64,000 nucleotides of DNA. Source: Escherichia coli (GTDB lineage: Bacteria > Pseudomonadota > Gammaproteobacteria > Enterobacterales > Enterobacteriaceae). The DNA lies in the NCBI RefSeq assembly GCF_003790525.1, contig NZ_CP033635.1; one strand, 5' to 3'. Position 1 is the first letter of the stretch. Each line of letters begins with the position of its first letter. Made by a program: the position numbers and the translations under genes. The notes under the pieces are model-generated. The model saw only the letters and a list, made by a program, of their open reading frames with translations, did not search any database and had not been told where the DNA came from. Below are positions 8,175 through 12,959 of the stretch, one piece after another.

Positions 8175-8215
8175 AGTCCCCTCGCCCCTTTGGGGAGAGG
8201 GTTAGGATGAGGGGA
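8175..8215. repeat. GC-rich palindromic intergenic repeat, copy 1
   Basis: agtcccctcgcccctttggggagagggttaggatgagggga; near-identical copy at 12919-12959. Confidence 0.5.
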
Positions 8216-8444
8216 AATGACTGTAGCCATTACCCTGCCCTATTGCCTTCCTGGACTGGGGAGAAAAACAGTGACTGAATCGCTCATAAACAGGTTTGTC
8301 AGCAATCTGGTTAGATGCGGTTATTTATTTTCAAACTATACCATTAGCACTGGAAGTTGGCACGTACAGGTGGGCAAAAAAACGAAAACTGGTCAACCAA
8401 ATATCAGTTTGATTGACCAGTAAGTCTGTAGGGTAATCAGTTAG

Positions 8445-9905
8445 TTACAGCGCAGCCACACACTCGCGCGCACCGCGTTCGCACAGCTGCTGATATGCCG
8501 CCGTCACCGCGCCAACAAAGTCGGCATTCTGCGGCAGATCATCGGCAAAAATACCGCTCAGGCCCAGCAGCGCTTTCACGCGGTCTGCGCCCTGATACTG
8601 CGCGTTGATCTTCTGGAACTCCACCAGCATCGGGTCGACCACGTCAATGGCATTACCCTGCTCATCCACGCCCTGGGTGTAACGCATCCAGCCAGCCACG
8701 CCCAGCGCCAGGTGACGCCAGCTGCCGCCGTTTTGCAGGTGCAGACGCACCGGATCCAGCAGACGCTGCGGTAACTTCTGGCTGCCGTCCATTGCAATCT
8801 GCCAGGTACGGTGACGCAGAGACGGGTTGCTGAAACGCTCGATCAGCAGCGTCGCATAGGCGTTCAGGTCCGTACCTTCCGGCATCGACAGCGTTGGCGC
8901 TTGTTCCTGCATCATCAGGGCAAAGGCCGCTTTGCGATAATCCGGGTTAGTCATGGTGTCGGCAATGGTTTCATAGCCGCCGAGGTAACCGAGGTACGCC
9001 AGGAAAGAGTGGCTGCCGTTCAGCATACGCAGTTTCATCATTTCGAACGGCACAACGTCTGCAACGAACTGTGCGCCCACTTTATCCCAGTCCGGACGAC
9101 CATTAACGAAGTTATCTTCAATCACCCACTGACGGAACGGTTCGCAGGCAATGGCGCACGGGTCGTAAACACCCAGCTGGTCAGCAATTTCCTGTAAGGT
9201 TTCTGGCGTCGCCGCCGGAACGATGCGGTCAACCATGGTGCACGGGAAGGTGACGTTCTCTTCAATCCATGCCGCCAGCTGTGGATCACGCGCCTGAGCC
9301 AGCCCCAGAACCGCGACCTTCGCCACATGACCGTTTTCACGCACGTTGTCGCAGGACATCACCGTAAACGCTTTCAGCCCTTTTTCACGACGCAGACGCA
9401 GGGCTTCTACGATGTAACCAATCGCGGACTTCGGCGCAGTCGGGTTTTCCAGATCGTGCTTAATCAGCGGATTATTGAGATCCAGCTGACCGCTTGCCGC
9501 ATCGGCGCAATAACCTTTCTCTGTGACCGTCAGGGAGACAATCGCCGTCTGCGGACGCGCCATCGCGTTGAGAATACCTTCACAACCGTCGATTTCCGGG
9601 TGCAGGGCTTCTTTCATCGAACCGATAATTTTCAGCTCGGTGCTTTCTGCGCCTTTTTCCGCCACGGTGTACAGCAGTTGCTGTTTTTTCAGGTTTTCGA
9701 TCAGCACGCGGTCGTTACCTGGCATCAGGTTAACTTCGCAGATACCCCAGTCGCTGTCGGTGCTTTCCAGCAGATGATGGGTGTACAGCGCCTGGTGCGC
9801 GCGGTGAAACGCCCCGCAACCGAGATGCACAATGCGTGATTCCAGACGAGAATGATCCCATGACGGGCGGGCAACCGGCAGATTGCTGTCAACAATAGTA
9901 GTCAT
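8445..9905 (-). CDS. uxuB: D-mannonate oxidoreductase UxuB
   Basis: 486-aa ORF; N-terminal Rossmann motif LGCGAFHRAHQA; position between uxuR and uxuA. Confidence 0.9.
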   Translation of the reverse strand: MTTIVDSNLPVARPSWDHSRLESRIVHLGCGAFHRAHQALYTHHLLESTDSDWGICEVNLMPGNDRVLIENLKKQQLLYTVAEKGAESTELKIIGSMKEALHPEIDGCEGILNAMARPQTAIVSLTVTEKGYCADAASGQLDLNNPLIKHDLENPTAPKSAIGYIVEALRLRREKGLKAFTVMSCDNVRENGHVAKVAVLGLAQARDPQLAAWIEENVTFPCTMVDRIVPAATPETLQEIADQLGVYDPCAIACEPFRQWVIEDNFVNGRPDWDKVGAQFVADVVPFEMMKLRMLNGSHSFLAYLGYLGGYETIADTMTNPDYRKAAFALMMQEQAPTLSMPEGTDLNAYATLLIERFSNPSLRHRTWQIAMDGSQKLPQRLLDPVRLHLQNGGSWRHLALGVAGWMRYTQGVDEQGNAIDVVDPMLVEFQKINAQYQGADRVKALLGLSGIFADDLPQNADFVGAVTAAYQQLCERGARECVAAL

Positions 9906-9985
9906 CGTAAACTCCAGAATCCGTCTTCAGAGAGTGACGGCAAGGAAGAAGGAACCGGCACGGCGCGCAGCCATGCCGGTGGATA

Positions 9986-11170
9986 TTAACGGCTAAAGAA
10001 AGCGCGCTGGATCGCCAGTTCGACACCGCGAACTTCGGCCAGGCCTTTCAGACGACCAATTGCGGAGTAACCTGGGTTGGTTTTCTTCTTCAGGTCGTCC
10101 AGCATCTGATGACCGTGGTCCGGACGCATCGGGATCAGGTCTTCTTTGCCTTCCGCTTTACGACGGTGTTCTTCTTCAACAATCGCTTTCACCACTTCGT
10201 ACATATCAACGTCACCGTTCAGGTGCGCCGCTTCGTGGAAGGTTTTCGGGTTATCTTCACGCATGGTGGAGCGCAGATGGGTGAAGTAAATACGCGGACC
10301 AAACTGCTTGATCATATCAACCAGATCGTTGTCAGCACGCACGCCGTAGGAACCGGTGCACATGGTGAAACCGTTCGCCATGCTGTTTACGGTATCAACC
10401 ATCCACTGCATATCTTCAATGGTAGAAACAATGCGCGGCAGGCCGAGGATTGGGCGCGGCGGATCGTCCGGGTGAACCGCCATACGCACGCCAACTTCTT
10501 CAGCAACTGGAATAATCGCTTTCAGGAAGACAGCAAAGTTTTCGCGCAGTTTGGCTTTGTCGATATCTTTGTACAGCTCCAGGTGCTTACGGAACTGGTC
10601 GAGGGTATACCCTTCTTCCGCACCTGGCAGACCGGCAATGATGTTACGGGTCAGACGCGCTTTGTCTTCGTCGCTCATAGTGGCGAAGCGTTCAGCGGCC
10701 TGAGCAATTTCTTCTTCGGTGTAATCCGCTTCCGCGCCTGGACGCTTCAGGATATGCATTTCGAATGCAGCGAATTCGATCTGGTCGAAGCGCAGAGCTT
10801 TGGAGCCGTCTGGCAGCACGTATTCGAGGTCAGTACGGGTCCAGTCGAGCACCGGCATGAAGTTGTAGCACACGGTGCGAATGCCGCACTGCGCCAGGTT
10901 GCGCAGGGTCTGCTGATAGTTAGCAATCCACTGCTCATAGTTGCCAGTGTGGGTTTTGATATCTTCGTGAATTGGTACGCTTTCAACGACAGACCACACC
11001 AGGCCTGCGTCTTCAACGATCGCCTTGCGTTTGAGGATCTCTTCTACGGACCATACTTCGCCGTTCGGGATATGGTGCAGCGCGGTAACCACGCCAGTTG
11101 CGCCCGCCTGACGGACATCAGCTAAAGAAACCGGATCGTTTGGGCCGTACCAGCGCCAGGTCTGTTCCAT
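9986..11170 (-). CDS. uxuA: Mannonate dehydratase UxuA
   Basis: Protein from [23 protein letters not shown]... (394 aa); the track ORF has a 12-codon 5' extension. Confidence 0.9.
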
Positions 11171-11509
11171 GATTTTTCCTCTTTCACATAGTGGGTTCCA
11201 CAGCAAAGAGACGTGGAGCCCCGGAGTTGTTTAGGTATCCGGATGAACAACCAGACCGCAGCCGTGGCGTTGCATCGGATGAGATGGCGTATAAGTTCTA
11301 CCTTTTGGTAAGACATGTCAACCCGAATTCTAAAATTGGTTAACCACATCACAAGAATTTCACTCTCATGGTTGTTGCTGCAAATTGCAGCAAAGAGTAA
11401 TCGATGGTTATTGATCAGAGGATGTGACATTCATCGCAACAATGGTTGACCAATTTACATAACATGTCGCCCAAAATAACAACGGTTCAACCAGGTAAGG
11501 TAAAACGTT

Positions 11510-12853
11510 ATGCATGTGCTTAACATTCTCTGGGTGGTATTCGGCATTGGTCTGATGCTGGTACTGAATTTGAAGTTCAAAATCAATTCAATGGTGGCTT
11601 TGTTGGTGGCGGCGCTGTCCGTCGGGATGCTGGCGGGCATGGATTTGATGTCGCTGCTGCACACCATGAAAGCGGGCTTCGGCAACACGCTGGGGGAACT
11701 GGCTATCATCGTGGTGTTCGGTGCGGTCATCGGTAAATTGATGGTCGACTCCGGCGCGGCTCACCAGATAGCACATACGCTGCTGGCGCGTCTCGGTCTG
11801 CGCTATGTACAGCTGTCGGTGATTATCATCGGCCTGATTTTCGGTCTGGCGATGTTTTATGAAGTGGCCTTTATCATGTTAGCGCCGCTGGTTATTGTTA
11901 TTGCCGCCGAAGCTAAAATTCCGTTCCTGAAACTGGCGATCCCGGCAGTAGCAGCTGCCACTACAGCACATTCACTGTTCCCACCGCAGCCGGGTCCGGT
12001 GGCGCTGGTGAATGCTTATGGCGCGGATATGGGGATGGTTTATATCTATGGCGTACTGGTGACGATCCCAAGTGTAATCTGCGCAGGTCTGATCCTGCCG
12101 AAGTTCCTCGGCAATCTTGAGCGCCCAACGCCATCATTCCTGAAAGCAGATCAACCGGTAGATATGAATAATCTGCCCTCTTTCGGCGTTTCGATTCTGG
12201 TGCCGCTGATCCCAGCGATCATTATGATCTCCACCACCATCGCCAATATCTGGCTGGTAAAAGATACCCCTGCCTGGGAAGTGGTTAACTTTATCGGTTC
12301 CTCGCCGATTGCAATGTTTATTGCGATGGTGGTTGCATTCGTACTCTTTGGCACCGCGCGTGGTCATGACATGCAGTGGGTGATGAACGCTTTTGAAAGC
12401 GCGGTGAAGAGTATTGCAATGGTGATTCTGATCATCGGTGCGGGTGGCGTGCTGAAGCAGACCATCATCGACACCGGCATTGGCGACACCATCGGCATGT
12501 TGATGTCCCACGGCAATATCTCGCCCTACATCATGGCATGGCTGATCACTGTGCTAATTCGTCTGGCGACGGGTCAGGGTGTCGTTTCGGCGATGACCGC
12601 CGCCGGGATTATCAGTGCTGCAATCCTTGATCCAGCAACCGGTCAGCTGGTTGGCGTGAATCCGGCGCTGCTGGTACTGGCGACGGCTGCGGGTTCCAAC
12701 ACCCTCACCCACATTAATGATGCCTCATTCTGGCTGTTCAAAGGTTACTTTGACCTGTCGGTAAAAGACACGTTGAAAACCTGGGGACTGCTGGAGCTGG
12801 TCAACTCCGTGGTTGGGCTGATTATTGTGTTGATTATTAGCATGGTAGCGTAA
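11510..12853 (+). CDS. gntP: Gluconate/fructuronate permease GntP
   Basis: 447-aa polytopic membrane protein of the GntP family, divergent from uxuA. Confidence 0.9.
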
Positions 12854-12918
12854 AAGAACACCGGAGCCTGCCAATGGCAGGCTCTGACTGATGACAAAGT
12901 CTAAAAATGTGCCCGGCC

Positions 12919-12959
12919 AGTCCCCTCGCTCCTCCGGGGAGAGGGTTAGGGTGAGGGGA
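12919..12959. repeat. GC-rich palindromic intergenic repeat, copy 2
   Basis: agtcccctcgctcctccggggagagggttagggtgaggggaa, matching the copy at 8175-8215. Confidence 0.5.

Follow-up and report, generated by a model that had tools for sequence, protein, structure and literature searches.

What are the two near-identical GC-rich elements that occupy separate intergenic regions, one between uxuB and uxuR and the other between gntP and fimH, in the 64,000-nucleotide stretch of E. coli SMS-3-5 DNA analysed here (the window)? The original prediction regarded them as copies of a 40-bp palindrome that probably belongs to a dispersed extragenic repeat family and may act as a transcript stabiliser or terminator. 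The elements and the spacers that hold them are listed below in window coordinates.

8123-8444: uxuB-uxuR spacer, intergenic, holding copy 1 (gene coordinates)
8148..8219, + (G-rich strand): BoxC copy 1, full repeat unit (pattern search, flank comparison)
8179-8214, +: core of copy 1
8179-8187: block 1 of copy 1, CCCTCGCCC, followed by a loop at 8188-8192
8193-8201: block 2 of copy 1, GGGAGAGGG, followed by the loop TTA at 8202-8204
8205-8213: block 3 of copy 1, GGATGAGGG
12854-13095: gntP-fimH spacer, intergenic, holding copy 2 (gene coordinates)
12891..12963, + (G-rich strand): BoxC copy 2, full repeat unit (pattern search, flank comparison)
12923-12958, +: core of copy 2
12923-12931: block 1 of copy 2, CCCTCGCTC, followed by a loop at 12932-12936
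12937-12945: block 2 of copy 2, followed by the loop TTA at 12946-12948
12949-12957: block 3 of copy 2, GGGTGAGGG

Architecture and family membership of the two elements

The predicted pair of direct copies is real. On the same strand, segments 8162-8221 and 12906-12965 align without gaps at 82% identity (60 nt). The 23-mer GGGGAGAGGGTTAGGGTGAGGGG is found at 12936-12958 with no mismatches and at 8192-8214 with one mismatch, has no other match in the 64 kb and was expected 0.00 times in 100 shuffles; the left arm gave the same outcome in both the two-site match and the shuffles. The description of the element as a 40-bp palindrome is accurate for part of its length only: palindromy is confined to the first ~25 nt (CCCCTCGCCCC / GGGGAGAGGGG, one mismatch), while the remainder is a third G-block, a near direct repeat of the second arm, and the conserved unit spans ~72 bp (8148-8219 and 12891-12963). 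Flanks of the form ATGACAAA..AAAGYGCWC..CRGTC before the core and GAACAG after it are common to both copies and to seven type-A copies of K-12, which were retrieved by coordinate for the comparison.

Judged by sequence, both elements are members of the E. coli repeat family called BoxC, PIT or TMECO type A. BoxC was described beside envM/fabI (Bergler et al. 1992), and 33 copies of 51-59 bp were annotated in early K-12 GenBank records. The window copies share its core, flanks, intergenic location and dispersal, and both can be aligned with the original fabI-ycjD copy. Nothing essential differs, apart from one strain-specific transition in each window copy; the conserved unit measured ~72 bp here, a little more than the nominal 56 bp. 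The same three blocks and the TTA second loop ("type A mm") characterise the TMECO elements of type A (Holder et al., NAR 2015, PMC4666352) and the PIT elements (Hoyne et al. 2000; Hoyne and Maher 2002), and K-12 sequences tabulated by Holder et al. (Table 1) agree with the window cores at 35/36 positions. The core consensus, CCCTCGCCCC-YYK-GGGGAGAGGG-TTA-GGGTGAGGGG, is similar in both copies to published members of the family. The finding is therefore already known, the repeat dating from 1992 and having been the subject of further studies (2000, 2002 and 2015).

The strict TMECO expression, CCCTCNCCC-N3-6-GGGNGAGGG-N3-GGGNGAGGG, is missed by each window copy by one substitution, and a fuzzy search with the published pattern allowing up to 2 substitutions found only these two copies in the window. 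The substitutions are lineage-specific: A8207 in block 3 of copy 1 is a G->A change, other carriers of this allele having the perfect consensus, and T12930 in block 1 of copy 2 is a C->T change. Orthologous alleles in K-12, strain 33-6 and CFSAN018748 fit the strict expression exactly, so the window copies are recently mutated members rather than non-members, and a single recent transition in each is the reason that strict pattern searches miss both. In agreement with this, Table S8 of Holder et al. (2015, PMC4666352) gives 7 strict SMS-3-5 copies, neither of the window copies being among them. The core of copy 1 is identical at 35/36 positions to K-12 TMECOs 7, 11 and 15; the uxuB-uxuR locus of K-12 itself has no BoxC. 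K-12 TMECO no. 23 (4,549,848-4,549,883) is orthologous to copy 2, again with 35/36 core positions identical, and the curated K-12 RefSeq record shows no repeat feature at this site. Computed as DNA, the hairpin of copy 1 is intact (-8.6 kcal/mol), and that of copy 2 is weakened to -6.0 kcal/mol, compared with -8.6 for the K-12 allele. A8207 would be expected to cost one G*G-C triad and T12930 one C-G pair, and consequently both copies should fold less well.

The genome-wide search and the comparison with known families bore out the predicted dispersed extragenic family. In ~5,400 of 5,426 E. coli genomes, searches with the 60-mers returned BLAST places, 14 in the median genome and 9-10 in SMS-3-5, which rules out a family of two copies only. 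More than 99.9% of the places are chromosomal. Copies in K-12 are found in either orientation in convergent, co-directional, intra-operon and divergent-promoter spacers, and most copies were assigned to conserved loci across 56 strains (Holder et al. 2015, PMC4666352). Among the matches listed, the three 9-nt blocks occur with identical sequence in distant phyla; the conservation across copies and phyla extends to the "N" positions of the expression (GGGAGAGGG, GGGTGAGGG).

Presence/absence polymorphism at the two loci

The allele comparison involves the following additional features.

8123..8327, no strand assigned: ~205-bp segment with copy 1, specific to one allele of the uxuB-uxuR spacer (37/5,426 genomes, alignment)
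8335..8421, -: conserved stretch of the spacer, uxuB-proximal (site scan and window sequence)
12864..12884, -: GC-rich hairpin that has a T-run on this strand but not on the other, kept in both alleles
12887..12968, no strand assigned: ~82-bp segment of the gntP-fimH spacer present in the occupied allele only, comprising the BoxC unit and 4-5 nt on each side
12988..13023, +: canonical REP beside copy 2, GCCAGATGCGACGCTGACGCGTCTTATCTGGCCTAC (naRNA4 partial match, alignment)

Copy 1 is rare, being present in 37 of the 5,426 E. coli genomes; more than 99% have the neighbouring genes intact and no copy between them. The non-BoxC part of its segment (8216-8330) occurs once each in the identical 37 genomes, and in the alignment the common E. 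coli allele has a ~95-bp REP-containing segment in place of 8123..8327. The REP-bearing and BoxC-bearing segments are thus alternative alleles of one spacer. The adjoining conserved part carries a terminator-like hairpin (8421->8388), which doubles as a TGGTCAACCA-type palindrome, and the scan placed a promoter-like site at 8363->8335. From the position of the latter, copy 1 would fall in the 5′ leader of uxuR; a mapped uxuR transcription start was not found in the literature searched.

Of the 5,426 genomes, 2,827 (~52%, at a query coverage of at least 80%) carry copy 2, and the other ~48% lack it but retain intact neighbouring genes. In the alignment, the site is occupied in SMS-3-5, K-12 and PSS-12 and empty in O157:H7, ST131, THO-006 and Ec-050. 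The indel corresponds to the whole BoxC unit, and in empty alleles GTTCGGATTGTCG stands in place of 12887..12968. This filler of 12-13 nt is unrelated, which implies that neither allele arose from the other by one clean step. No clear target-site duplication was seen at copy 2 in the alignment of occupied and empty alleles; a 6-nt CAAAGT repeat was considered for this role, found to be weak and judged to be due to chance. The CTGTTC of the empty allele was likewise too weak to be taken as an inverted remnant of the BoxC flank.

The REP predicted beside the gntP copy is kept in occupied and empty alleles alike and gives a partial match (12987-13019) to the REP-derived Rfam family naRNA4, with 30.7 bits, under the gathering score. 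At a permissive threshold over 7500-13500, no Rfam family was placed on either BoxC copy. The hairpin at 12864..12884 lies 10 nt past the gntP stop codon and looks like the terminator on the side of the fim operon.

Both sites are polymorphic by indel or replacement of the whole unit, and in SMS-3-5 each copy shows decay, one of its structural blocks having acquired a derived transition. Both loci display the behaviour that the TMECO authors termed "TMECO mutated" and "intergenic change" (Holder et al. 2015).

Competing explanations and the probable nature of the copies

The reading of the elements as known, structure-prone BoxC repeats without a function specific to the two loci accounts best for these observations, and we give it a probability of about 0.85. 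A chance likeness of two GC-rich intergenic stretches, for which only the short length speaks, can be dismissed almost completely: two sites were observed against 0.00 expected in shuffles, and thousands of homologous copies exist in other genomes. The suggested role in RNA, in which a transcribed hairpin terminates transcription or shields the upstream mRNA from 3′ exonucleases in the manner of REP, is improbable. Transcribed untranslated sequence probably includes both copies: copy 1 sits between the promoter-like site and the start codon of uxuR, and copy 2 between fimH and the terminator-like hairpin, 65 nt beyond the gntP stop. Taken as absolute energies (-20 to -28 kcal/mol), the RNA folds are stable. 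The fold z-scores are weak, however (-0.2 to -1.9), and, whereas BoxC resembles intrinsic (Rho-independent) terminators in having a GC-rich intergenic stem-loop, it differs in lacking a U/T-run and in its variable orientation, which extends to divergent-promoter spacers such as fepB-entC. The terminator scan was silent at both copies, its calls being confined to 8421->8388 and 12884->12864. Copy 1, moreover, is located 5′ of a gene and not 3′, and the copies are missing from many or most strains. According to work cited in PMC4666352, promoter and terminator reporters were negative (Hoyne and Maher 2002) and RNA forms no purine-motif triplexes. The terminator or stabiliser reading thus found no support, although a generic stabilising effect of the BoxC RNA hairpin may exist.

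Less probable still is a role as a binding site in double-stranded DNA, through which a nucleoid-associated or regulatory protein might influence the autoregulation of uxuR or the expression of fim. The strong conservation of the block sequences across copies and phyla would suit such a site, and protein binding has a precedent in REP/BIME elements. We know of no BoxC-binding protein, however; the copies are dispensable and decaying in SMS-3-5, and their position relative to promoters is inconsistent. Somewhat better placed than the RNA element, and still unlikely, is an active or recent non-autonomous mobile element of the MITE or REPIN type, moved in trans, with inverted doublets of types A and B as the transposing unit. 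BoxC shares with REP/BIME elements and RAYT-mobilised REPINs a short, GC-rich, imperfectly palindromic and extragenic nature, and some copies of each form inverted doublets, which for BoxC (type A with type B) are seen in K-12. Mobility is also favoured by the discrete ~72-bp unit with conserved ends, by the correspondence of the gntP-fimH indel to that unit, by dispersed copies, by the appearance of new loci in minority lineages, copy 1 among them, and by lineage-specific expansion, with more than 150 copies of the motif in Mitsuaria chitosanitabida among the matches listed. Against it, neither a target-site duplication nor a clean empty site was found, and tblastn with E. coli RayT detected no homologue near the motifs (best E = 3.1) in the limited sample of 1.07 Mb of flanks from three non-E. 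coli genomes (Mitsuaria, a Methylomirabilota MAG and Contendobacter). Phages hardly ever carry the motif (3 of 50,697) and ordinary plasmids have essentially none, and the assignment of most copies to conserved loci by Holder et al. also argues against recent movement. BoxC further differs from REP in its unrelated sequence, the naRNA4 match falling only on the neighbouring REP, in its third block and in its far smaller number of copies.

Under the preferred reading of known BoxC repeats, the two copies would be dispensable repeats left behind by some dispersal process. It weighs against this reading that BoxC is not known to have a mechanism of dispersal, and that the gntP-fimH alleles show neither a clear target-site duplication nor a single clean step from one to the other. 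The 9-nt C-rich block would pair with a 9-nt G-rich block as a hairpin, onto which the second G-rich block, past the TTA loop, would fold back, giving in single-stranded DNA an intrastrand purine-motif triplex of the kind formed in vitro. Consensus oligonucleotides gave a stable triplex by CD and NMR, DMS footprinting in vivo gave no triplex signal, and variability around TMECO loci exceeded that around control spacers (PMC4666352). The main consequence would lie at the DNA level: the G-rich strand may fold transiently in replication or transcription and so favour local indels and segment replacement, leading BoxC-bearing spacers to differ between strains. The whole-unit polymorphism at both sites fits the reported link between the repeat and intergenic instability. 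We infer from these data that structure contributes to instability, and that both copies are neutral, a locus-specific function being most likely absent. The blocks that are identical across distant phyla could nevertheless reflect a selected function rather than neutrality, and, with two loci only, the association with polymorphism could come partly from the known recombination activity around fimH.

As the rediscovery of a known repeat family, the finding in itself matters little. It indicates that strict pattern searches undercount BoxC, both window copies having been missed by one base each, and the clear presence/absence polymorphism at both sites in 5,426 genomes lends independent support to the reported association of the repeat with intergenic variability. 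It is also conceivable, albeit with long odds, that the ~72-bp BoxC with its flanks is a cassette that is still gained and lost whole, through an unrecognised enzyme or recombination route, and that its arrival between uxuB and uxuR in a minority lineage, replacing the REP-bearing uxuR leader immediately before the start codon, alters uxuR autoregulation. If so, BoxC turnover would be a source of natural regulatory variation rather than neutral decay.

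Two BoxC copies in intergenic spacers

The window, which is 100% identical to the reverse strand of E. coli SMS-3-5 (NC_010498.1), contains two GC-rich elements on the same strand. Positions 8162-8221 and 12906-12965 share 82% identity over 60 nt without gaps. The 23-mer GGGGAGAGGGTTAGGGTGAGGGG occurs exactly at 12936-12958 and with one mismatch at 8192-8214, with no third site in the 64 kb; no matches were expected by chance (100 dinucleotide-preserving shuffles). The left arm of the element identified the same two sites. The gene coordinates place both elements in intergenic spacers, copy 1 between uxuB and uxuR and copy 2 between gntP and fimH, in agreement with the original prediction, which had also correctly placed a REP beside copy 2. 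The term "palindromic" fits the first ~25 nt of each element only; the remainder is a third G-rich block nearly repeating the second arm.

Features of the two spacers and adjacent genes
ending at 8122, minus strand, uxuR
8148-8219, BoxC unit of copy 1 including flanks, ~72 bp (flank alignment)
8363 to 8335, minus strand, promoter-like site
8421 to 8388, minus strand, terminator-like hairpin after uxuB
8445-9905, minus strand, uxuB
9986-11170, minus strand, uxuA
11510-12853, plus strand, gntP
12864-12884, hairpin with a T-run on the minus strand only
12891-12963, BoxC unit of copy 2 including flanks, ~72 bp (flank alignment)
12988-13023, REP adjoining copy 2, with a partial match to Rfam naRNA4 (REP-derived family) at 12987-13019
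from 13096, minus strand, fimH

Both elements are members of the already known BoxC/PIT/TMECO family. On the basis of the K-12 GenBank record, PMC5172473 tabulates BoxC as a 56-bp repeat (51-59) present in 33 copies. According to Holder et al. (NAR 2015, PMC4666352), Hoyne and Maher (2000, 2002) came upon BoxC (Bergler 1992) again as the "potential intrastrand triplex" (PIT) element; Holder et al. renamed it TMECO, with the consensus CCCTCNCCC-N3-6-GGGNGAGGG-N3-GGGNGAGGG, distinguished types A and B by the second loop (TTA and CCG) and listed 23 K-12 copies in Table 1. A fuzzy search of the window with this pattern, allowing up to two substitutions, returned the same two sites only. TMECO no. 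23 (K-12 4,549,848-4,549,883, CCCTCGCCCCTCCGGGGAGAGGGTTAGGGTGAGGGG; PMC4666352) sits between fimH and gntP, and copy 2 is its orthologue (alignment A1), differing in SMS-3-5 by a single C to T replacement (T12930). Copy 1 differs from K-12 TMECO nos 7, 11 and 15 by a single G to A replacement (A8207). At the copy 1 site, other strains with this uxuB-uxuR allele match the consensus perfectly; hence, A8207 and T12930 are recent, lineage-specific changes. Seven strict TMECOs are listed for SMS-3-5 in Table S8 of Holder et al. (PMC4666352), and both copies are missing from that list because each carries one substitution. Alignment with seven K-12 type-A copies, retrieved by coordinate, revealed a left flank ATGACAAA..AAAGYGCWC..CRGTC and a right flank GAACAG common to both copies, so the BoxC units span ~72 bp, with homology beyond the structural blocks.

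Distribution and allelic polymorphism

The predicted membership in a dispersed family was borne out by the match to the published sequences and by copies throughout the genome; a total of two copies genome-wide, which would have refuted it, is contradicted by the counts. Searches with the 60-mer of each copy hit ~5,400 of the 5,426 complete E. coli genomes, with a median of 14 places in each (range 1-27); nearly all of these places are chromosomal, and SMS-3-5 has 9-10. Matches in phages were limited to 3 of 50,697 records. In the plasmid collection, most matches lay on large replicons of rhizobia and Azospirillum or on E. coli records of chromosome size that had been filed as plasmids. Two BoxC-like places of ~50 nt and 90% identity occur in each of the ~174-kb records of Campylobacter phages A18a and A11a (MG065686.1 and MG065691.1); an enterobacterial repeat would not be expected there, and the matches could be genuine, convergent or due to contamination of the assembly.

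Among the matches listed, the strict pattern was found in a Methylomirabilota MAG, Mitsuaria chitosanitabida (more than 150 copies, a lower bound) and a Contendobacter MAG, in agreement with its claimed occurrence in >260 genomes (PMC4666352). What these taxa share with E. coli is confined to the three 9-nt blocks; each lineage has its own loops and flanks. Within the same matches, neighbouring Mitsuaria pairs are nearly always '-+' (27 pairs, gaps of 30-272 nt, no '+-' pair), the Methylomirabilota MAG has '+-' doublets with gaps of ~30 nt, as in E. coli, and Contendobacter copies have TTA and CCG second loops, like types A and B of E. coli.

Both spacers are polymorphic. At least 80% of the 351-bp gntP-fimH query was covered in 2,827 of the 5,426 genomes; coverage in the remainder was ~77%, as two pieces. 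Alleles with the BoxC unit (SMS-3-5, K-12, PSS-12) contain 82 bp at 12887-12968, i.e., the entire unit and 4-5 nt on either side, in place of which empty alleles (O157:H7, ST131, THO-006, Ec-050) have GTTCGGATTGTCG (alignment A1). Both kinds of allele have the REP and the hairpin next to gntP. In several genomes (e.g., E. coli PSS-12, NZ_AP027697.1), only ~93 nt of the 3' end of gntP remain, with the annotation "incomplete hypothetical protein", directly beside the BoxC copy, a larger deletion or rearrangement bordering BoxC.

The SMS-3-5 form of the uxuB-uxuR spacer occurs in only 37 of the 5,426 genomes. In the common allele, a REP-bearing segment of ~95 bp lies immediately upstream of the uxuR start codon; the SMS-3-5 allele has ~205 bp (8123-8327) comprising BoxC and ~110 bp (8216-8327) with no other location in E. 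coli. Both segments begin right at the start codon; therefore, lineages differ in their uxuR leader and ribosome-binding region. E. coli strain 2D (NZ_CP059003.1), a close relative of SMS-3-5, has an IS4-family insertion in an otherwise identical uxuR-gntP region.

Transcriptional context and folding

The terminator-like hairpin after uxuB and the promoter-like site suggest that copy 1 would lie in the uxuR 5' leader; a literature search found no mapped uxuR transcription start. Copy 2 lies 65 nt beyond the gntP stop codon. Since the T-run of the 12864-12884 hairpin is on the minus strand only, copy 2 would lie in the fimH 3' UTR, in agreement with the label "3' of fimAICDFGH" in Suppl. S2 of Holder et al. 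(PMC4666352). The 8388-8421 hairpin doubles as TGGTCAACCA-type palindromes (ACTGGTCAACCAAA / TTTGATTGACCAGT); together with TGGTTGACCAATTT, of the same type, at 11443-11456 in the gntP-uxuA spacer, these look like putative UxuR/ExuR operators. The uxuA-uxuB spacer (9926-9984) gave a weak match to the Rfam DnaX frameshift element (24.1 bits, E = 0.047, short of the gathering score of 35) and most likely holds no more than a GC-rich hairpin between the two cistrons (CCGGCACGGCGCGCAGCCATGCCGG).

The proposed role as an RNA terminator or stabiliser finds little support. The terminator scan called no site at either copy, RNA folds were unremarkable against shuffles (z-scores of -0.2 to -1.9), and tests by Hoyne and Maher for promoter or terminator activity were negative, as reported by Holder et al. 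(PMC4666352). In addition, K-12 copies occur in both orientations and in convergent (tauD/hemB, frlR/yhfS), co-directional (fabI-ycjD, hrpB-mrcB, ygfF-gcvP), intra-operon (pstA-pstB) and divergent-promoter (fepB/entC) spacers.

As single-stranded DNA, copy 1 retains the consensus hairpin (-8.6 kcal/mol), its mutation being in the third block, and the mutation in copy 2 weakens the hairpin to -6.0 kcal/mol, compared with -8.6 kcal/mol for the K-12 allele. Consensus TMECO oligonucleotides form a triplex fold by CD and NMR, and no DMS signal for the triplex was obtained in vivo (PMC4666352).

Interpretation

An active MITE- or REPIN-like element would fit the discrete unit and its whole-unit gain or loss; however, comparison of the alleles found no target-site duplication or clean insertion at either polymorphism, and there is no carrier replicon. 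Nor was an enzyme apparent: a tblastn search for E. coli RayT in 1.07 Mb of DNA around the motifs in the three non-E. coli genomes returned no homologue (best E = 3.1). BoxC might also be a putative protein-binding site. The best-supported reading is that copies 1 and 2 are dispensable members of the BoxC family without a locus-specific function. They would be prone to folding as DNA, they accompany indels or replacements in their spacers, and both are already decaying in SMS-3-5. Family membership, dispersal, polymorphism and decay follow directly from the present comparisons; the neutrality of the copies and the link between structure and instability, which draw partly on Holder et al. (PMC4666352), are proposed as probable features of these loci. 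The additions to the known family are small: two population-scale polymorphisms, the exchange of REP and BoxC alleles at the uxuR leader, and the finding that recently mutated copies escape strict pattern searches.
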